The position numbers and the translations under genes are program-made. Positions 4,870 to 22,264 of a stretch of DNA of 30,065 bases are shown in pieces. Position 1 is the first letter of the stretch. The number at the start of each line of letters is the position of its first letter. The notes under the pieces are model-generated. The model did not search any database. It was not told where the DNA came from and saw nothing but the letters and a program-made list of their open reading frames with translations. Source of the stretch: a virus (taxonomy: Duplodnaviria > Caudoviricetes); IMG/VR virus record IMGVR_UViG_3300020017_000422, positions 1 through 30,065 of that record. One strand, written 5' to 3'.

Positions 4870-5991
4870 GTTAACCTCAGTAACCATAATATTTACTTAC
4901 AGCTTTCAAATCATTATCTACACTAGTGTTGTCTTTACGCTCAAGTGCTTTCAAGCCTACAGCGAGATAACGGAATGCGTCAGCGGCATGTGAGTGCTCA
5001 TCATGCAATGGTGTGTTTTTATAACAGCCCAGGCGATCGTCCCAGACCTTTTTATATGCCTCCAAATGGCGGAATCCTTTTTCCGTCTTTGAATCGTCAA
5101 AAACACATCTTGAGAGCATTGAGCGCACTGTTTGTATACCCTCAAGCTTGTCACATTCCTTGATATCCAATACGATAAACTTACCATCGAGTAAAGGTGT
5201 AACGTGGTCAAGATATTGTGTCTTAGCTCCAGCGTCTCTTTTTCTTGCATCATGAGGGAATATGTGTCGGCCAAAACGGTATTTCTGCTTATTAAGCCAG
5301 TCGCAATAATGTGACGCGCCTTCGTCCCAATTTTCGTAATAATTGATAATTGATACATTGCCACCACGACCTACCTGAAAGCAAAATATAGCAGTAAAAT
5401 CATCCAGACCAATATCCCAGGCAGTATGCACAGGAATGGCGTCATCATAAGGCACACGGCATAAAGAACCAGTAGCCCTAAGTTTTGCAAGCTGCATGCC
5501 ATAGTAAAGGCCTTCATTAGCGCTTTCAAATGCTTCCTTTGGTGTAGATGGATACTCCTGCTTCATTGAGTCGCCTAGCATACGTTGCTTCATCTCGTAC
5601 CAGCGGCGTTGCTCCTCATCGATCTTGCGCTGCCTTTCGAGCTCTATGCGGTCTAGGTATTCGTTTGTTTCTTTGCTCACTGTGATTGACTCGCTTGGCT
5701 CTCTATAGGAGTGCTCTTCAAACCAGGGGAAAAAAAAGAAACGCTGTTGCATTGGGGACAATGCACATCCAGCCGCTGACAAACCTTCGGCTTGTCTGGC
5801 GAACTCATAGAAGTATCCCTCTCTGCCTTCCGCAGTTGACTCAATAGCAATGATCTGATCTGTAGAAACTGTATTAAGGCTGCCTGTGACGATTTCTTTA
5901 GCAACGTCAGGTGACTTAGCGCATATCTTTCCAAACTCTGAGACAAGCAGCCTTTGGTAAGTTCCTGATCGAAATCCTGTAGAGACGCGAT

Positions 5992-6056
5992 AAGAGCTTC
6001 CGTTTTCAAAAGCAAGTTCACCAGATCGGTCATTTGTTGCGCTGTTAAATGTTCGC
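5992..6056. repeat. 65-bp perfect inverted repeat, left copy
   Basis: AAGAGCTTCC...AATGTTCGC is the exact reverse complement of 6287-6351. Confidence 0.97.
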
Positions 6057-6286
6057 TTTAACCTCAATTGGGCGCAGCAGGAGCTCTACCATAAAGAATG
6101 GCATCAAATGCTAGTTCTCAAGGCTCGGCAATTAGGCGTAACCACTTACTTTTCAATAAACTTCTTGGATGAATGCTTTTGGCATGGTAATACTCATGCA
6201 GGCATCATCGCGCATAGAAAGGAAGATGCCGAGGATATCTTTAAAAAGAAGGTGAAGTACGCATATGACCGGATGCCCCAATGGAC
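6057..6286 (+). other. Inverted segment of terL (adenine-binding Q motif and Walker A)
   Basis: Plus-strand frame reads FNLNWAQQELYHKEWHQMLVLKARQLGVTT...YDRMPQWT. Confidence 0.9.
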
Positions 6287-6351
6287 GCGAACATTTAACA
6301 GCGCAACAAATGACCGATCTGGTGAACTTGCTTTTGAAAACGGAAGCTCTT
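6287..6351. repeat. 65-bp perfect inverted repeat, right copy
   Basis: GCGAACATT...GGAAGCTCTT; match ends at both flanks. Confidence 0.97.
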
Positions 6352-6512
6352 CGCCTGATTTGTTCGTAATGTAGTAGAGGTGTGTTAGGCGCCAGAGCTT
6401 ATCGTTGAGTTCCTCTTGAGTGGGAATGTATTCGTCCACGTTCTTTTTCCTTGCTTATAAATCCGGTATTCCGATACGCTCACTGCCATAACACCAAACA
6501 AAGGAATACAGC

Positions 6513-6695
6513 ATGGAAACAAAAAGCAATCGCATAACAATGACAGAAGCAGAATGGAACACCATCCATAATGATTTTAAAACCGTTATCATGGGCGCAA
6601 GGTTCCTGATGACGTGTAAAGATGATGTAGGATCTACGTTGGAGTATGTGCAGATAGTCAAAGAGGCTCAGCCTACTTCTTATGCATCTTTTTGA
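6513..6695 (+). CDS. Hypothetical protein (60 aa)
   Basis: AAGGA RBS, ATG; fills gap between terL and upstream gene. Confidence 0.45.
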   Translation: METKSNRITMTEAEWNTIHNDFKTVIMGARFLMTCKDDVGSTLEYVQIVKEAQPTSYASF

Positions 6696-7541: not shown

Positions 7542-7570
7542 TTGACTTATATTAACTTGTGTTATACAAT
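7542..7570 (+). promoter_or_regulatory. Sigma70-type promoter
   Basis: TTGACT-17 bp-TACAAT upstream of the J-domain gene. Confidence 0.75.
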
Positions 7571-7601
7571 ATCCATCATACAATCCAAGAGGGGAAAAAT
7601 C

Positions 7602-8081
7602 ATGTTATATTTTGCAGGGCTTACAAGCGCACAGGAAATCAGGTCTCGCTACAAGGATTTAGCAAAGCAATATCATCCTGATAAGGGCGGTTGTGTTGAG
7701 ACCATGGCGGCGATCAACAATCAATATGAGCGCGTGATAGTGGGTTGCTATCAGGAAGCAGAAGACAACTTTGACTTAGGCTCTTTCGTTCGTGTAGAGC
7801 GTGAAATTATGGCAAAGACTGTGAAGGTGTCGGCTCTAACTAACGTAGAAGTGGAACTATGTGGTAGTTGGATATGGATCACCGGCAACACCTGGGAAGT
7901 GAGAGAGTTTTTGAAGTCAGAGGGTTTTAAATGGGCTAACAAAAAGAAGGCTTGGTACTGGCACAATGAGCCTATGGTGGCCAAACCTTATCGAGGAAAG
8001 ATGAGTTTAGATGAGATTCGCCAAAAACATGGTAGCGAGAGATTGCGTCAAGGTTTTAGTCAATCGCGGATGATAGCGTAA
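7602..8081 (+). CDS. J-domain (DnaJ-type) protein with C-terminal aromatic domain
   Basis: EIRSRYKDLAKQYHPDKGG with HPD motif; GAGGGG RBS before ATG 7602. Confidence 0.85.
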   Translation: MLYFAGLTSAQEIRSRYKDLAKQYHPDKGGCVETMAAINNQYERVIVGCYQEAEDNFDLGSFVRVEREIMAKTVKVSALTNVEVELCGSWIWITGNTWEVREFLKSEGFKWANKKKAWYWHNEPMVAKPYRGKMSLDEIRQKHGSERLRQGFSQSRMIA

Positions 8082-9828: not shown

Positions 9829-10455
9829 TTAAAAGATCATCGGTCTTCTATCTGGTCCATCATGCCTCACACAGCGACCAGAGGCCACACGGCTAACAAA
9901 AGCATCTCCAAACATCTCCCTCATCGAGGTTGAGTTTAAATTAGTTGTTATGATTGTACCATGTGTTGATTTAAGCTTATGTCGCTTATCTGCTATGATG
10001 TAAAGAAATTCCATGAAAGCTTCTGTAGGCCTTGTGGTCCCTATGTCATCCAAAACCAGCAATGGGGCTTTGATTAGCTCGTTGAGGAGGTAGTCCGTAG
10101 GGCCGTATTTGGCGAATATGGCCTGCTGCTTGAGCTTGAGGTCGGCTTGATTCCAAAACATGTTGTCATTCCAGGGATGGTAGAACTTGCCGAATATGGC
10201 CTCAGCGGTGAATGTCTTGCCATTGCCGTTCTTGCCTGAGATGAGAAAAAAGCCTTTAGGGTTAGCTACAAACTCGTTTACGTGCTTCATGTACGCCTCT
10301 GGCTTATCGTCTATCTCGCTGAGTTTGGGATACACTCTAGAACCTACCTGTGTGTGGGCTGTCGACGGGGTTGCCGTCGATGTCTTTGGTTCGTCTATCT
10401 TGCGAAGTGCCCCCGGAAGCAGATCGGTAAGCCTTTTTGTTTTCGATTCGCTCAT
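9829..10455 (-). CDS. DnaC/IstB-like AAA+ ATPase (helicase loader)
   Basis: Walker A GKNGNGKT, Walker B LLVLDDIG, TIITTN; start re-assigned to MSESK (GGGAG upstream). Confidence 0.9.
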   Translation of the reverse strand: MSESKTKRLTDLLPGALRKIDEPKTSTATPSTAHTQVGSRVYPKLSEIDDKPEAYMKHVNEFVANPKGFFLISGKNGNGKTFTAEAIFGKFYHPWNDNMFWNQADLKLKQQAIFAKYGPTDYLLNELIKAPLLVLDDIGTTRPTEAFMEFLYIIADKRHKLKSTHGTIITTNLNSTSMREMFGDAFVSRVASGRCVRHDGPDRRPMIF

Positions 10456-11134
10456 TTTCTCTCCCAAACCAGCCTGTGAGGTATTTCCTGTAGCTAGACC
10501 GCCTGCTCTTGGATTGATTGTTTTTAAACCATTGTGCTGCTTTGAGGGTTTCGACCTGGATGTCGATATGCGGGTACATGAGCTTCCAGTCGGCAACGTC
10601 CTTTTCGGCGATTCCAGTGAAAGACCAAGATTCGTGATCGAAAGACAAAGCATCGACTGAGCGAGGCCGCTTTGCGGTCCGAGGTCTATCTATCTTTGGT
10701 ATATCGTTAGATATACCTTCTTTACATTCTTGTTTGTCGTTGGTCGGTCGTTGGTCGGTCGTTGGTCGGTCGTTACTTCGGTCGTTACCCACTTCTGAAT
10801 TTATATCCCAAACGCTTGTGGATAAGAGCTTTACCTTAGTTCCAACGGTCGTTACTCCGGTCGTTGATTTTTTGCGTGTGCGGCACGTTTCCACGATTTC
10901 TATATGTTGGCGCTTCACCAAAAGGTCTTTCGCTGTTCGATAGTTTTGTTCGGTCATATCATAATTGGTGTGTCCGCCAATGAAGCATTCTCCAATGCTC
11001 AAACCATCGGGATCACCTTTATGGCGTCGAGCGGATTCGGCAATAATAGCTAGAAGTCGGAAGGCATGACCCTTCTTTTTTAAGAGCCACATAGCTTCAT
11101 CGGAAGGAATGAATTTTAGGAATCGTTCAGACAT
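10337..11134 (-). CDS. Phage replication initiator (lambda O-like organisation)
   Basis: Upstream of DnaC-like loader; N-terminal wHTH-like region, central repeat-encoded linker, C-terminal KAAQWF..KYLTGWF domain. Confidence 0.7.
   Translation of the reverse strand: MSERFLKFIPSDEAMWLLKKKGHAFRLLAIIAESARRHKGDPDGLSIGECFIGGHTNYDMTEQNYRTAKDLLVKRQHIEIVETCRTRKKSTTGVTTVGTKVKLLSTSVWDINSEVGNDRSNDRPTTDQRPTNDKQECKEGISNDIPKIDRPRTAKRPRSVDALSFDHESWSFTGIAEKDVADWKLMYPHIDIQVETLKAAQWFKNNQSKSRRSSYRKYLTGWFGRENERIENKKAYRSASGGTSQDRRTKDIDGNPVDSPHTGRF
10687..10866. repeat. Putative replication origin: iterons, DnaA box, AT-rich segment
   Basis: GTCGTTGGTCG x3 (10736-10768) plus GTCGTTAC variants to 10866; TGTGGATAA at 10817-10825; GGTATATC-GTTA-GATATACC at 10698-10717. 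Confidence 0.7.
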
Positions 11135-11312
11135 AGCGCTCCACAAAAACGTTGCGTGCTTTTGCGTGGAGTGCTAGAATGGAAGTACAAACACGTCCAT
11201 TCAAGCGTCTCCACGCTTCCCCGAATAAGCCTCGACTACCAATCGAGGCTTTTTCTTTGTCTAGACTAGCATATGCTGCCGATGCAAAGCAATAAAGGTT
11301 TATACTAATCAT
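11127..11312 (-). CDS. Possible leader peptide spanning the rep leader
   Basis: ATG overlaps the upstream stop and TGA overlaps the rep start; may be non-coding. Confidence 0.3.
   Translation of the reverse strand: MISINLYCFASAAYASLDKEKASIGSRGLFGEAWRRLNGRVCTSILALHAKARNVFVERYV
11152..11180 (+). promoter_or_regulatory. Antisense promoter 1
   Basis: TTGCGT-17 bp-TAGAAT with extended -10 TG. Confidence 0.65.
11187..11258 (+). ncRNA. Candidate antisense RNA 1 (about 70 nt) opposite the rep leader
   Basis: Bracketed by promoter and terminator on the strand opposite the operon; ends inferred. Confidence 0.55.
11227..11258 (+). terminator. Intrinsic terminator of candidate antisense RNA 1
   Basis: AAGCCTCGA-CTACCAA-TCGAGGCTT then TTTCTTT. 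Confidence 0.7.
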
Positions 11313-11580
11313 TCAGATGTGGCCCCAAAACGTCGATCTGAAACTCTTCATCACCTTCGACGAAATGGACGAGATTCAGAAACATCAGGGGTGCCAGCAG
11401 ATTCCTAAACATCGTTGGCGAGATCAGATATTCCTTGCGTACACTCTTTTTCTCAGTGACCAAGCACATCTGCTTACCTTTCTTTTTCCAGAGCTGGACA
11501 TAAAGAAGAGCCGATTTAGGACAGCTTTTTAAGACTCGATTGAAATATTTTAACGGGGGAAATTCCGAATAGTCGTGCAT
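11305..11580 (-). CDS. Hypothetical protein, possibly winged-helix DNA binding
   Basis: 91 aa between Cro-like gene and rep; ISPTMFRNLLAPL helix followed by a beta hairpin. Confidence 0.65.
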   Translation of the reverse strand: MHDYSEFPPLKYFNRVLKSCPKSALLYVQLWKKKGKQMCLVTEKKSVRKEYLISPTMFRNLLAPLMFLNLVHFVEGDEEFQIDVLGPHLND

Positions 11581-11596: not shown

Positions 11597-11625
11597 TTGT
11601 TTTCTTTTAGGGGAAAGCATACGAT
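11597..11625 (+). promoter_or_regulatory. Antisense promoter 2
   Basis: TTGTTT-17 bp-TACGAT. Confidence 0.5.
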
Positions 11626-11631
11626 TTTCTG

Positions 11632-11765
11632 TAGAAACGTCCGCTTTCCCGAATTTGTGGGCTTATCGTGTCGCAATGTGGGCCTGCACCCCCTGGTAGG
11701 TTGGCGTTTTTGATGATGTTCCTGACTGGCGGCGTAGCTGATTGGCGTTAGCTACGCCGATTTTA
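11632..11765 (+). ncRNA. Candidate antisense RNA 2 (about 130 nt)
   Basis: Promoter above; ends in CGGCGTAGCTGA-TTGGCG-TTAGCTACGCCG followed by ATTTT; ends inferred. Confidence 0.45.
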
Positions 11766-11868
11766 AATATATTTATCAAATAAAGATTGCAAGCGATTTT
11801 CTTTATTCAGTAGCTTTTGCCTAGGGGAATTGTCAACCTAGGAAGTTATGTATGAAAGAAGTGTGGAC

Positions 11869-11907: not shown

Positions 11908-12165
11908 CTACTTAGTGGTAGGCTTGGTTTTTGCTTTAGGCTTGGTTTTGGCAGCTTTTTTGCTGTCTGTATAAGATTGGTCGATCCAATCGTAGACTGT
12001 GATAGCACCTTTGGTGTACTTCTCTATTTCGTACGCCAGCTTCAAGTTTGGTGTCAGTCCCTTCCTCAATATGTCGTGGAGTGTAGAGGTGCTGATGCCC
12101 AGCTTCTCTGCCACCCCCCTTTGTTTTTTGTCATTACATTTCATCCATTCTGCAAACTTATTCAC
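11908..12165 (-). CDS. XRE/Cro-like HTH regulator with Lys-rich tail
   Basis: QRGVAEKLGISTSTLHDILRKGLTPNLKLAYEIEKYTKGAIT; GTG start after GAGGG. Confidence 0.85.
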   Translation of the reverse strand: MNKFAEWMKCNDKKQRGVAEKLGISTSTLHDILRKGLTPNLKLAYEIEKYTKGAITVYDWIDQSYTDSKKAAKTKPKAKTKPTTK

Positions 12166-12279
12166 TTGACCCTCTTTTCGAATGTTTTTATGGACAAAAA
12201 TACGGAATCGCGATACGTTTGTGAGCATACCAAGCAAACTTGTTAAGCGCAATGTTTTTGCTTAGTAAACGAAAAGGTG

Positions 12280-16140: not shown

Positions 16141-18678
16141 TTAACAAACAAGCCATCCGCTAAAACACGTCTGATTTGTGCCGCTTTGTATGTCGACCAC
16201 ATCTCCAGCCTCTCCGCTAACCGCCAAGACGAGTTTGGCTGTATCTCCCGCTTTCATAGGTATATTAGCTGATCCGCTTAGGCATAGGTTTCCTGACTGA
16301 GCTAAAGCTAATCCTCCCGTTCTAAATAGCTGGGCGATGATTGTTCCGCCTGAGTTTCGTAAAGTAATATCTACCGACGTAGCGGCAACGATCCCATACA
16401 TAAAAATTGTAGAATCAAAATGATATTTACCAGTAACGGGAGCGGTGAACGTATAGGTGGCATTGTTATAGTCCGCATTCTGGTCATAAGCTTCAGTGTT
16501 GCATGCCACAGTGTAAGCTGTACCTGCTCCCGTGACATTCGTAGCATCTGCACTCAGAGTTGCTCTAAAAGATGGCTGAACTGGGTAGGTCCACTCACCC
16601 GCTGCTGTGCAGTTCGATGATTGGGTAGCTGCGGCTCTATCTCCGACATAAACCTTGAATGTTCCTGTGCCAGCGTTGTTTAGAGCGGCCATATTCAGGC
16701 CTAGGCATTGCTCGTCCGTTTGCAACTCAGCCCGTCCCTGTACGCGTGCAAGAGGGTCGGCTGTATTTGCAACCACCAAGTTACAACTATTTGTACCGCC
16801 CGAAACAGTGTTCTTCAGGCTTAACTGAGCTTGCGCACTAGCGGCGTCTGTAGTGTTTGTCAAAATATAGGCAGTGGTTGCAGCTTGAGCTTTGAGCTGT
16901 GTTACCTGGCCGCCTGCGGCATTATAGGTGATAAAGGGGCTTGCATCGCTAGGTGTAGCACTACCTGAAGTCGCATATGTTAGTTTGAGAAGGTCCGAAT
17001 CGCTGTTGTCTATGCCTAAAGCGTAACTGGTTGTAGAACCCACACTCCATTGTGACCACGTATCCCCCGCTGTGCTTCCGGCTACTGAATGTAAAAAAGT
17101 GGACTGTGAGGAGGCTGTATTGCTGGTGTTAGTAACGCTCAGTGTTCTAGTGGCACCTGAGACAGATGACCTAAACTCGAAATCTCCGTCAGCGTAGGGT
17201 GTGGCCATTCCTACCGTTAGAGTGCTTCCTGAACCGGCTGTATCGATTCCGTTAGTAGATGTGGAAAGGATATTCCAGTTGCCTGCTGTTGGAGATAGAG
17301 GACCGCCAGTATCGCCAGTAATCGTTTCGCCCAATCCAGCACCATTGACAGAAACGAATCCATTGGCGTCTACAGTGAATCTTGCGCTATCAAAAGCTGA
17401 AAGACCTACCTTGGTGGCATCTGTGGACGCTATTGCTTGTGCTTTCTGTACTTGTACCGTAAGCGTGCTTACTGATCCTGATGTTCGTACCGGTGTAGTT
17501 CCAGCAGCAGTCGACGACCCTACAATATTCCAGTTTCCAGCCGTTGGAGACAGTGCCCCTCCAACATCGCCTGTGATGGTTTCCCCTATTCCCGCTCCAT
17601 TGATTGAAACAAATCCATTGGCATCTACGGTAAAAAACGAACTATTGAACGCTGCCAGACCTACGTTTGTAGCGTTAGTAGAGGCTATTGCTTGTGCTTT
17701 CTGTACTTGTACGGTCAATGTGCTTCCAGAGCCTGACGTCTGAACCGGAGTCGTTCCTGAAGCTGTGGAAGTGCCTAATATGTTCCAATTGCCTGCTGTT
17801 GGAGATAGAGCTCCTCCCACATTGCCCGTAATAGTCTCTCCTATGCCTGCCCCATTAATCGAAACAAAACCGTTGGCGTCTACAGTGAAATAGGTACTAT
17901 TGAAGGCCGCTAGACCTACATTTGTGGCATTTGTAGAAGCAATTGCTTGAGACTTTTGTACCTGAACGGTCAACGTGCTGCCACTTCCAGCCGTCTGCAC
18001 GGGTGTGGTACCTGGGGCTGTAGACGTTCCTAGTATGTTCCAATTTCCGGCAGTCGGCGATAGAGCGCCTCCGGTGTTGCCAGTGATGGTTTCTCCTACA
18101 CCACTTCCGTTTATGGATACAAAGCCGTTGGCATCTACAGTGAAATACGTGCTGTTAAAGTGGCTAACCCCGTTATCGCCTATGGTAGATGCCGCAACGG
18201 CCTGTGATCGCTGAATCTGGATTGTATAGGTATTAGCAGCCAAGGAAACGGTTCGAATGACGTTCGTTGTTGTCCCAGCCGTAACTTGACCCCCTGTGAT
18301 TGTTACGACACCAGAAACACTAGGTGTCACCGGATTGGTTCCTGGCGCTGTGAAAGCATCGACTTGGAACGACTCAACAGCCGCTGTTCCTAATAATGTT
18401 ACAAAGCCATTGGCGTCTACAGAGAAATCAACTGAATTGAAAGATGCTATACCCGCATTGGTTGCCACAGACGTAGCTGCCGCTGACGCGTACTGGACCT
18501 CAATGTTTATCGTATTGCCTGAGCCGACCGTCTCAATAGGTACACTATGCGCTGCAACGGCTGAAGCTAGAATTTCAAGCGTATTGGCTATAGGAACAGC
18601 GCTTCCTACATCGGCTACAAAGAGTATGGGGACTTCGGGGTGTGTCCCAATGAAGTCTACTGTTCCGGCTTGCGACAT
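16141..18678 (-). CDS. Tail fibre/adhesin with 85-aa repeats and C-terminal C1q-like domain
   Basis: G/T/S/A-rich; VDANGFV x5; C-terminal PSFRA..YTFTAPVTGKYHF..FSGWLV C1q pattern. Confidence 0.85.
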   Translation of the reverse strand: MSQAGTVDFIGTHPEVPILFVADVGSAVPIANTLEILASAVAAHSVPIETVGSGNTINIEVQYASAAATSVATNAGIASFNSVDFSVDANGFVTLLGTAAVESFQVDAFTAPGTNPVTPSVSGVVTITGGQVTAGTTTNVIRTVSLAANTYTIQIQRSQAVAASTIGDNGVSHFNSTYFTVDANGFVSINGSGVGETITGNTGGALSPTAGNWNILGTSTAPGTTPVQTAGSGSTLTVQVQKSQAIASTNATNVGLAAFNSTYFTVDANGFVSINGAGIGETITGNVGGALSPTAGNWNILGTSTASGTTPVQTSGSGSTLTVQVQKAQAIASTNATNVGLAAFNSSFFTVDANGFVSINGAGIGETITGDVGGALSPTAGNWNIVGSSTAAGTTPVRTSGSVSTLTVQVQKAQAIASTDATKVGLSAFDSARFTVDANGFVSVNGAGLGETITGDTGGPLSPTAGNWNILSTSTNGIDTAGSGSTLTVGMATPYADGDFEFRSSVSGATRTLSVTNTSNTASSQSTFLHSVAGSTAGDTWSQWSVGSTTSYALGIDNSDSDLLKLTYATSGSATPSDASPFITYNAAGGQVTQLKAQAATTAYILTNTTDAASAQAQLSLKNTVSGGTNSCNLVVANTADPLARVQGRAELQTDEQCLGLNMAALNNAGTGTFKVYVGDRAAATQSSNCTAAGEWTYPVQPSFRATLSADATNVTGAGTAYTVACNTEAYDQNADYNNATYTFTAPVTGKYHFDSTIFMYGIVAATSVDITLRNSGGTIIAQLFRTGGLALAQSGNLCLSGSANIPMKAGDTAKLVLAVSGEAGDVVDIQSGTNQTCFSGWLVC
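17213..18460 (-). repeat. 255-bp tandem coding repeats (three full units 18096-17332 plus degenerate flanking units)
   Basis: Equivalent Val codons at 17371, 17626, 17881, 18136; synonymous divergence between units. Confidence 0.9.
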
Positions 18679-20674: not shown

Positions 20675-20710
20675 ATGGCTGTATGTGTAACCAGAAACGG
20701 GAGATTAATA

Positions 20711-20920
20711 ATGAATTTTCTTACGATTGCAGAGTTCGCAAAATGCATTAAAATGCACCCTGGCACAGTGCGCAGGGCAATCAAGCAAGGAAAGATATAT
20801 GCCAGCCGTCCAAGCTTAGGCATAAAGGCACCCTATCGAATCGCGGAGTCGGAATTGGAAAGACTGCACCTGCAAGGTATGTGTGAAAAACCTAAGCCTA
20901 AAAAACAGAAAGGAGAATAG
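20711..20920 (+). CDS. Excisionase/MerR-like HTH (HTH_17-type) DNA-binding protein
   Basis: FLTIAEFAKCIKMHPGTVRRAIKQGKIYA; GGGAG RBS before ATG 20711. Confidence 0.8.
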   Translation: MNFLTIAEFAKCIKMHPGTVRRAIKQGKIYASRPSLGIKAPYRIAESELERLHLQGMCEKPKPKKQKGE

Positions 20921-20922
20921 CT

Positions 20923-21102
20923 GTGGATTGGACGCAAGTAATAACAATTCTTGGTGGTAATCTGGCTCTCTTTTTGTGGGCGACGCGTCAAGCTAGAACT
21001 GATTATTTGCATATATGCAAAATGATCGAAGGAATCCAAAAGGAGATGACTGACTTTCATGGCCGTCTTTGCACTATCGAGGAAAGAAATAAGATAAAGT
21101 GA
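20923..21102 (+). CDS. 59-aa membrane/coiled-coil peptide (not in the ORF track), paralogue of 22043..22264
   Basis: AAGGAG RBS, GTG; MDWTQVITILGGNLALFLWATRQARTD...QKEMTDFHGRLCTIEERNKIK. Confidence 0.8.
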   Translation: MDWTQVITILGGNLALFLWATRQARTDYLHICKMIEGIQKEMTDFHGRLCTIEERNKIK

Positions 21103-21111
21103 AGGTAAGCA

Positions 21112-21390
21112 ATGAAATTTGCAATGCCTTTGGGTGGCGTTTTAGAAATCAGGTCAGAGCCGGAATTGGATTTCGACGATGAAATGGGTATGCCTTATGA
21201 TAAAAAAATCGAAGGCGTTATTTGGCGGATATTCTGGAATGATAAGTCGTTGCCTTGGTGCACGGAAACAAAACTACAAGCTATGGCAATAGCTTTTGGA
21301 TGCCAATATGGAGCAATGCTGTCCCACAATCATCCAATAAGGAAGAGGAAGCCCGATGAACGATCAAGACAAAATGATCAAGTTGTTTGA
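21112..21390 (+). CDS. Hypothetical protein (92 aa)
   Basis: AAGGT RBS; operon packing. Confidence 0.6.
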   Translation: MKFAMPLGGVLEIRSEPELDFDDEMGMPYDKKIEGVIWRIFWNDKSLPWCTETKLQAMAIAFGCQYGAMLSHNHPIRKRKPDERSRQNDQVV

Positions 21391-22036
21391 TTCAGCGGAC
21401 GATGCTGTGCTTAGGAGTTTAAGCGCTGATCGCTACGCGATTCACATGCTCCGATGGATGAACGCAAAAAAAAATGCTTCAGTACTAGAATTGGCTTGTG
21501 GCAATGGCAGGGTAGCCAAATTCATAAAACAATTCAGGCCTGATCTAGATTATTCATGCATGGACATATGTCCTACTTTGACCAAAACAGCCCAGGAACT
21601 CAACCCTGAAATGAAGGTACATACCGGAGACTGTCTCAAAGGTATTCCATATAGTCGATACGATTTCATTATTAGTTGGAGTTTTGTCCAGTACCTATCT
21701 TTAAAAGAGTATACCGACCTGAATCGTATGCTCCTTGGACATTTGAATCCAAACGGAGAAATCTGGCACTTTTCTATCCCTGATAATACAAAAAGATGGG
21801 AGCACACCATGGCCCCGAGAAACACAAAGCTTGCCAAGGTGAAAGGCCTTGCCAGATATCTTCTAGATTCATTCAAACGCCCTTATGGGCCTGCATCTAT
21901 ATGGCATGATCCCGTGGAACTGTTGACTTCCTTAGACCATAAGAACATACAATCCACGTTTTTCCAACCAGGTGACGTGGGTTATCGCTTTCATATTCGC
22001 ATCAAAAAACGAATAAACAACAAAGATAATGGGTAA
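21356..22036 (+). CDS. Class I SAM-dependent methyltransferase (not a DNA MTase)
   Basis: VLELACGNG motif I, MDI, GD, YDFII, LNPNG; no DPPY/NPPY/PC motif. Confidence 0.85.
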   Translation: MNDQDKMIKLFDSADDAVLRSLSADRYAIHMLRWMNAKKNASVLELACGNGRVAKFIKQFRPDLDYSCMDICPTLTKTAQELNPEMKVHTGDCLKGIPYSRYDFIISWSFVQYLSLKEYTDLNRMLLGHLNPNGEIWHFSIPDNTKRWEHTMAPRNTKLAKVKGLARYLLDSFKRPYGPASIWHDPVELLTSLDHKNIQSTFFQPGDVGYRFHIRIKKRINNKDNG

Positions 22037-22042
22037 AAAATC

Positions 22043-22264
22043 ATGGAAACATTAGCAGTGATATTGGCGATGGCGGCCTTATTCTTATGGGTAAGATCTG
22101 AAGCAAATGCCGACCGTAGACATATCAGTGAGATTCAACGTCAAGATAGGAAAGACATCCTGTCTTTGGTTGAAGCTATTAAAGACGATGTACGCGCCAT
22201 TAAGGAAGAGATGAAAGACTTTCACAATAGGCTTTGCGCAATCGAAGAAAAAAGGACAAAATAA
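22043..22264 (+). CDS. 73-aa membrane/coiled-coil peptide
   Basis: N-terminal hydrophobic helix ALFLW, C-terminal EMKDFHNRLCAIEE. Confidence 0.75.
   Translation: METLAVILAMAALFLWVRSEANADRRHISEIQRQDRKDILSLVEAIKDDVRAIKEEMKDFHNRLCAIEEKRTK

Follow-up and report, generated by a model that had tools for sequence, protein, structure and literature searches.

The leader of a probable replication initiator gene (rep) in a tailed phage contains a promoter and a terminator that point backwards, against rep, and judging by comparison with related phages this element is real. Its predicted product, an antisense RNA of about 72 nt, would lock a hairpin that hides the rep ribosome binding site (RBS), and we give a probability of roughly 60% to the reading that this is copy-number control of a prophage that likely persists as a plasmid. 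Antisense control of rep is textbook knowledge for plasmids. An earlier interpretation of the same DNA made from its letters alone (the sequence-only reading) had suggested plasmid-type replication control in a tailed phage, and this suggestion is now well supported by conservation, covariation and strand bias. An internal sense promoter and a second switch, both described below, were absent from it.

Locus and comparative set

The window, i.e. the whole 30,065-nucleotide stretch of DNA analyzed, is a linear virus record of 30 kb (77% complete by a tool's estimate) with portal, terminase, Erf, RecE and tail genes. On its minus strand, a Cro-like helix-turn-helix (HTH) gene is followed by orf91, a 61-codon ORF, rep and the gene of a DnaC-like loader:

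11908..12252, minus strand: Cro/XRE-like HTH gene, head of the module (HTH_3 E 1.7e-4, under the curated cut-off; PHROG regulators E ~1e-4)
11305..11580, minus strand: orf91, a conserved small protein, possibly HTH (atlas leads only), with a stop that overlaps the start of the 61-codon ORF
11127..11312, minus strand: 61-codon leader ORF that spans the whole switch and overlaps the orf91 stop and the rep start
10337..11134, minus strand: rep, probable replication initiator of 265 aa (putative role), with N-terminal winged helix and internal repeats
10736..10866, no strand assigned: GGTCGTT repeats of iteron type within rep; at 10736-10786 they form 4.5 copies with an 11-bp period
9829..10455, minus strand: DnaC-like helicase loader (phrog_50, E 5.8e-21)

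One search returned 204 Rep relatives, and the longest contig among the 120 matches listed is shorter than 41 kb. We gathered 134 records including the window, to which a metagenome scan contributed the best 80 of 186; removal of 26 duplicates and of 17 records without a start or enough upstream DNA left 91 loci. A rapidly built tree from the N-terminal part of Rep, for which the leader was not used, yields a core clade of 67 rows that includes the window (SH-aLRT 98), next to 22 outgroup rows and 2 rows that are too short. Finer tests were restricted to 53 loci with terminator and promoter at the canonical position. As the core loci are mutually related, p-values overstate the support.

Other parts of the window have peculiarities of their own. 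The large terminase (4877-6540) is in pieces, with minus-strand ORFs at 4877-6067 and 6194-6439 and a plus-strand ORF with terminase-like residues at 6108-6374, which suggests a local inversion or an assembly artefact, and the portal (22-2037) is split into 1444-2037 and 22-1422 where relatives have one ORF of ~671 aa, by frameshift or sequencing error. A plus-strand island at 20675-22264, amid minus-strand structural genes, contains an excisionase-like HTH_17 gene without integrase, two small hydrophobic proteins of the same family and a methyltransferase; the same island of relatives carries an RtcB tRNA-splicing ligase (L136:3765-4943, E 1.4e-67), with similar ORFs at L138:9309-10487 and L142:10792-11970. 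A plus-strand DnaJ-domain protein (7542-8081) lies between early and packaging genes, and a probable tail fibre of 845 aa (16141-18678) has long internal repeats.

The probable initiator

Rep is probably a replication initiator, a label that we use because of its winged-helix fold, the repeats within its gene and the adjoining loader. It has no Pfam match at E <= 0.1, no PHROG match, no PDB sequence match and no match among 72,556 plasmids; a sequence search returned one distant Vibrio phage. The Rep model has an N-terminal winged helix with generic Z-scores of 7-8 and a top Z of 8.2 (VIA-align; the C-terminal half was barely tested), and its similarity to 4pta ('MDR initiator'; Z 7.2, rmsd 3.1, 86 aligned) is tied with that to many unrelated winged helices. 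GGTCGTT occurs in six copies within 10601-10900, and these repeats are the likely origin. The loader was found 3' of rep in 23 of 67 loci, some loci being cut short.

Behind a persisting leader, the rep genes differ in three loci (L160, L166 and L172), and in another (L176) an ORF is inserted there. One genome (G018, L144:16492-17764) has a Rep homologue shortened to 118 aa and then a different, 307-aa rep-like gene, an apparent replacement of the initiator behind the same leader. Another (G016, contig L036; rep at L151:4408-5400) has a different backbone, with Rep and leader convergent between portal and terminase and no loader, and carries the sole tyrosine recombinase of the 20 genomes surveyed.

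An antisense unit in the rep leader

The unit in the leader of rep, which we call B, has these parts:

11152..11180, plus strand: antisense promoter B, TTGCGT-17-(TG)TAGAAT, with a spacer that on the mRNA is the anti-SD
11187..11258, plus strand: predicted antisense RNA B, ~72 nt, start placed from the -10 box
11227..11258, plus strand: hairpin H1, the intrinsic terminator at the end of RNA B, with a likely kissing loop at 11236-11242

What the sequence-only reading had picked out in the letters is there. This holds for the promoter (TTGCGT at 11152-57, 17 nt ending in TGC, TAGAAT at 11175-80) and the terminator (11227-11258), for the mRNA segments CUCCACGC (11171-64), GCGUGGAG (11216-09) and GUGGAG (11144-39), for the mRNA loop UUGGUAG (11242-36) and for the 61-codon ORF (11127-11312, minus strand) that overlaps both the upstream stop and the rep start. 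The short SD-ATG spacing that it had remarked on (rep ATG at 11134, 4 nt after GGAG) turned out to be the family norm (31/53).

Judged in the window alone, promoter B is no better than chance, since a scan omitted it and gave 4 promoter-like sites against 5.3 expected. The picture is different in the comparison. A sigma70-like promoter and a terminator in the correct order are present in 55 of the 67 core loci, in 0/22 outgroup loci and in 0/1,340 shuffles, at a promoter cut of 9 (lowered from 10, with the controls re-run at 9); an earlier, stricter detector with a promoter cut of 10 and a partly faulty stem search had given 43/67. Promoter B by itself scores at least 9 in 58/67 core loci, 1/22 outgroup loci and 99/1,340 shuffles, and its -10 box keeps a near-constant distance to the rep ATG while the spacer sequence varies. 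Antisense RNA B has a computed fold z-score of -6.3, and in H1 97% of cells are paired, with double changes in 7/8 pairs. Rfam covariance models gave 0 matches at gathering score, and sub-threshold matches only, in the window plus four loci that represent two complete relatives. When a viral collection was scanned for the leader pattern, 10 loci were returned, nine on contigs already found via Rep, plus L160. No RNA data set was listed as containing this DNA, and one sequencing run with a small share yielded six short pieces, none on the leader.

The wobble pairs place the terminator hairpin on the antisense strand, and on the mRNA the switch helices described below. Mismatches in the core of H1 are A-C on the mRNA, i.e. 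G-U on the antisense strand (10 vs 0, with 8/10 in one column), and wobbles in the switch helices are predominantly G-U on the mRNA (22 vs 9 for the ON helix, 25 vs 8 for the OFF helix).

The window's loop, UUGGUAG, had been likened to the U-turn loop of ColE1 RNA I by the sequence-only reading. A YUNR motif at the 5' end of the 7-nt H1 loop is found on the sense strand in 29/49 loci and on the antisense strand in 18/49, and of the distinct loops 31/33 have one (null mean 5.0, maximum 15). The placing of the motif on the mRNA thus stood for the 29 sense loops, but not for the 18 loci that have it on the antisense strand instead. A U-turn in the sense or the antisense recognition loop is a hallmark of loop-loop antisense pairing according to the accessible part of PMC4485353, and one or the other strand has it in 47/49 loci. 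Six H1 loop types are found both ways round, suggestive of micro-inversions, by which specificity would change.

Mutually exclusive helices at the ribosome binding site

Downstream of H1, the mRNA can form the following hairpins:

11203..11218, minus strand: small hairpin H2 with the SD-like upstream partner GCGUGGAG (11216-11209), stem 58% in one fixed register
11177..11202, minus strand: middle hairpin H3, stacks under the ON helix, 71% paired, double changes in 5/6 pairs
11139..11174, minus strand: OFF hairpin H4, anti-SD (11174-11164) with rep SD (11144-11139), 82% paired

Two mutually exclusive helices are thus present, of which one (OFF) hides the SD and the other (ON) sits under the antisense RNA. 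In a MAFFT alignment of 41 of the 53 loci (12 with divergent layout were left out, and the counts ignore relatedness), pairing amounts to 82% in the OFF helix and 78% in the ON helix, double changes are seen in 8/8 and 7/8 pairs, respectively, and 0/500 shuffles reach the ON/OFF covariation score. Pairing energies tell the same locus-specific story: across the 53 loci, the energy of pairing between the anti-SD and the upstream segment is -11.9 kcal/mol within a locus and -7.6 kcal/mol between loci, and that between the anti-SD and the SD is -11.1 and -7.2 kcal/mol, respectively. Masking the region covered by the RNA raises the mean cost of opening the RBS by 6.9 kcal/mol, compared with 2.1 for a shuffled and 2.2 for a swapped upstream segment, and the real value lies above all eight shuffles in 36/53 loci. 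Covariation among related phages, one of the checks that the sequence-only reading had named, came out in its favor, as the anti-SD covaries with both partners.

In predicted folds the nascent prefix is ON in 47/53 loci and the bound form is OFF in 52/53, and the free full-length leader is also OFF at equilibrium in 35/53, the window included. The ON state would therefore be co-transcriptional and metastable, and the switch kinetic. The proposed logic, in which binding of the antisense RNA favors the occluding fold, is well supported by conservation, covariation and strand bias, but has to accommodate a free leader that is already OFF in these 35 loci. H4 runs into the rep start codon, and a U-run after the induced hairpin, as in attenuators of the pT181/pIP501 type, is absent.

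An internal promoter and a leader ORF kept open

Inside the 61-codon ORF lies a conserved sense promoter:

11263..11292, minus strand: internal sense promoter P_rep, TTGCTT-18-(TG)TAGTCT; the short rep mRNA would begin just before H1

In most loci the pattern TTG-18-TGnTAnnnT is found 12-13 nt 5' of H1. P_rep scores at least 8 in 55/61 loci with terminator, compared with 469/3,050 shuffles (15%), and an extended -10 TG is present in 47/61 loci, compared with 162/3,050 shuffles.

The 61-codon ORF is open across the switch in 44/53 loci, but only in 6.6% of 10,600 shuffles, 4/22 outgroup loci and 18/159 antisense frames; the open leader ORF is lacking in 9/53 loci. A spurious chance ORF was considered and rejected on the strength of this difference (44/53 open vs 6.6%). 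While the distance from H1 to the promoter varies from 49 to 83 nt, one frame is kept in 45/49 loci, with indels in threes, and loci with a slipped frame have a stop on the start codon in 8/9 cases, compared with 3/34 otherwise. Because the ORF is open, its frame kept and slips compensated, translation through the switch is, by this comparative record, under selection. By eye, the peptide itself looks conserved only at positions dictated by DNA motifs. The sequence-only reading had seen in this ORF a counterpart of the R1 tap leader, and this mechanism did not survive: the ORF starts ~55 nt beyond the reach of the antisense RNA, on the 5' side of the internal promoter, so that the antisense RNA cannot block its initiation. 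A role of the ORF as a translational bypass is likely.

A predicted second switch before orf91

Upstream of orf91, a unit of the same design (A) is predicted:

11597..11625, plus strand: antisense promoter A, TTGTTT-17-TACGAT, with a spacer that is the anti-SD of orf91
11632..11766, plus strand: predicted antisense RNA A, ~135 nt, with terminator hairpin at 11730-11759 (loop AUUGGCGUU)
11766..11792, minus strand: TTGCAA-N15-TATATT motif, AT-rich inverted repeat, conserved

Promoter A is found in 22/23 loci with direct leader (null 7.6%), and the fold z-score of antisense RNA A is -3.7. Its terminator stem is 89% paired over 30 loci, with double changes in 9/9 pairs and wobbles that again lie on the antisense strand (22 vs 2). 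A hairpin with a CGCCA loop is present in 38/48 evaluable loci, and most of the remaining ones have a hairpin with another loop; on the antisense strand the loop reads UUGGCG. The spacer has two possible partners, an upstream copy and the orf91 SD, pairing with either being above shuffles in 15/17 loci, and the weak cross-locus covariation of the long helices (mean rank 0.36) is explained by the conservation of the sequence. The TTGCAA-N15-TATATT motif is a predicted sense promoter with odd spacing and/or an operator. The stretch 11597-11792 of the window also holds a second copy of AAAACGCCA at ~11700-11710. A pattern scan for switch A returned 27 loci, of which 17 belong to the Rep/leader family; the 10 without a family gene were taken as chance.

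Lifestyle and host

Twenty records of these uncultured phages, 19 of them at least 90% complete, were surveyed by loose first-look searches that can miss genes, with a tyrosine recombinase (PF00589) in 1/20, serine recombinases (PF00239 and PF07508) in 0/20 each, an S24 (CI-type) repressor domain in 0/20 and ParA in 5/20. ParA is missing in 15/20; the window contig ends at that position. In the two genomes that were inspected, ParA and a small downstream gene come after the portal (L135:7410-8372 and L141:14349-15253); there, the ParA is short and the small gene is ribbon-helix-helix-like (by eye; no Pfam match). Traits of phage-plasmids are thus present, with virion genes (portal, terminase) and an integrase in 1/20 records, and a plasmid state of these phages is likely.

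Among 120 matches listed in one search, one capsid record is labeled Rhabdochlamydiaceae, in keeping with a presumed resemblance. Disagreeing labels are those of one 4.3-kb contig in a Puia MAG, from a genome scan, and of Alphaproteobacteria for 1 of 120 matches listed in another search.

Model and alternatives

Comparison among relatives establishes both promoters, the terminator, the exclusive covarying helices, the U-turn loop and the kept-open ORF as sequence elements, and together they suggest a model for the control of rep. The short mRNA from the internal promoter would fold ON first, with the anti-SD held by its upstream partner, which would open a brief window for translation, after which the mRNA would relax or be switched OFF. 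If the antisense RNA binds the nascent mRNA, it would remove the upstream partner of the anti-SD, and the resulting hairpin would hide the rep ribosome site; the variable H1 loop may set incompatibility. On the longer transcript, ribosomes would pass orf91 and traverse the 61-codon ORF, thereby melting the switch, and then start anew on rep. Such a bypass may lead to uncontrolled (lytic) synthesis of the initiator, and the second unit, before orf91, would gate it.

A more far-reaching version of this model is put forward only tentatively, and we regard it as rather doubtful. These phages, possibly of environmental Chlamydiota, would decide between lysis and the plasmid state by a stacked pair of antisense switches rather than by a CI repressor and an integrase. 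Switch A, with its near-invariant UUGGCG loop, would confer family-wide immunity by shutting the ribosome relay from orf91 over the 61-codon ORF to rep, and switch B, with a hypervariable loop flipped by micro-inversions, would set copy number and incompatibility; one initiator would serve lytic and plasmid replication, and the leader ORF would exist only to melt the switch.

A real antisense switch could also work in a purely lytic or carrier-state phage, where it would throttle or time initiator synthesis without a stable plasmid state, end theta replication and exclude co-infecting kin, all from the position of lambda OOP. That the order of HTH gene, small ORF, antisense RNA, initiator with internal repeats and loader mirrors cro-cII-oop-O-P (in the accessible part of PMC3349717) speaks for this, as do the absence of ParA from 15/20 genomes and of a CI-type repressor (0/20). 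However, OOP overlaps the 3' end of cII according to the same partial source, whereas RNA B covers the rep leader and the leader ORF only, and the dedicated internal promoter and variable kissing loop make most sense as steady-state control. With ParA and a small downstream gene in 5/20 genomes in addition, we consider a phage without plasmid state unlikely.

It is a good deal less probable still that the antisense RNA acts mainly via mRNA decay, transcription interference or termination at H1, and that the alternative fold is a self-closing timer, or a coupling device that makes rep depend on the leader ORF. The antisense RNA covers the covarying upstream partner completely, the effect of masking is specific, and H4 ends at the start codon without a U-tail. 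These observations have to be set against an OFF hairpin that is dominant at equilibrium without any RNA (35/53), convergent promoters 70 nt apart, a TTTT tail of H1 that is also on the mRNA strand in 16/53 loci, and the terminator induction reported for repABC ctRNA in the accessible text of PMC3155836. As promoter-like hexamers are frequent by chance, one might finally suspect that the elements act as DNA (operators, cruciforms) or as a bidirectional terminator, with no functional antisense RNA at all; a promoter fixed in position with a variable spacer, strand-specific wobbles, U-turn loops in either strand and the three-way covariation make this very improbable. We therefore retain copy-number control by an RBS-locking antisense RNA as the preferred reading.

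In that case the layout would be a compact answer to an open question, namely how a single initiator lets a phage-plasmid pass between controlled and runaway replication. Some 50 natural switch variants of ~70 nt, apparently orthogonal, would be available, and, if the host hint is true, possibly a replicon for environmental chlamydiae. The basic logic is probably common; the unusual part is the bypass ORF together with the stacked pair of switches. A literature search that missed most subscription journals returned no title on an antisense-switched phage initiator with a bypass ORF, and the word 'antisense' is absent from the accessible part of a phage-plasmid review (PMC11652158).

Relation to known systems

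Comparisons with published systems refer to those parts of the cited papers that were accessible. In I-complex plasmids (ColIb-P9 Inc RNA, IncK RNAI), the loop sets incompatibility and rep is activated via a pseudoknot (PMC10724649). The title of a ColIb-P9 paper among the references of that source names a 5'-rUUGGCG-3' loop motif, the same as in the loop of switch A, but it is named there for the target loop, whereas in the phage it is on the antisense strand. The repABC ctRNA resembles the phage unit as a small antisense gene directly upstream of an initiator, with the SD open in the free mRNA (PMC3155836); it differs in that the ctRNA is reported there to induce an intrinsic terminator, and the phage has neither a repAB operon nor a RepC match.

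R1 shares with the phage a pair of sense promoters and a leader ORF that is coupled to rep; there, tap is present on both transcripts and its translation product is kept down by CopA (PMC5717011). An R1-type leader ORF that overlaps the rep start is present in 44/53 loci, but the short phage transcript, from the internal promoter at 11292-11263, is without the ORF start, and the antisense RNA, which ends at ~11258, does not reach that start at 11312. Mycobacteriophages with RNA-based prophage origins are integrase-free as prophages, have par genes and use a non-coding RNA in replication (PMC7157519), but according to this source it is phages lacking RepA that need the RNA to initiate, whereas here the RNA would repress a protein initiator.

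Plasmid pSK41, one of the staphylococcal RepA_N plasmids, comes nearest in mechanism. Its RNAI of ~83 nt binds upstream of the RBS and induces an RBS-sequestering stem-loop without termination (PMC5703833), and the likeness extends from antisense RNA size and RBS sequestration to origin repeats inside rep and a winged-helix N-terminal domain. There is, however, no sequence or Pfam link between pSK41 and the phage element. The phage element also differs in its setting, a tailed phage, and in its design: the spacer of the antisense promoter doubles as the anti-SD, the switch is traversed from end to end by a translated ORF, and another switch is located upstream. In position, the phage unit matches lambda OOP, an antisense RNA of 77 nt that terminates itself and lies directly before a phage initiator gene; OOP opposes cII expression, and the accessible part of the source (PMC3349717) mentions no RBS switch on O. 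An OOP-type overlap with the 3' end of the upstream gene is absent here, as orf91 ends at 11305 and the RNA spans ~11187-11258. A member of neither of these two systems nor of any Rfam family, the phage switch combines a logic like that of pSK41 RNAI with a position like that of lambda OOP.
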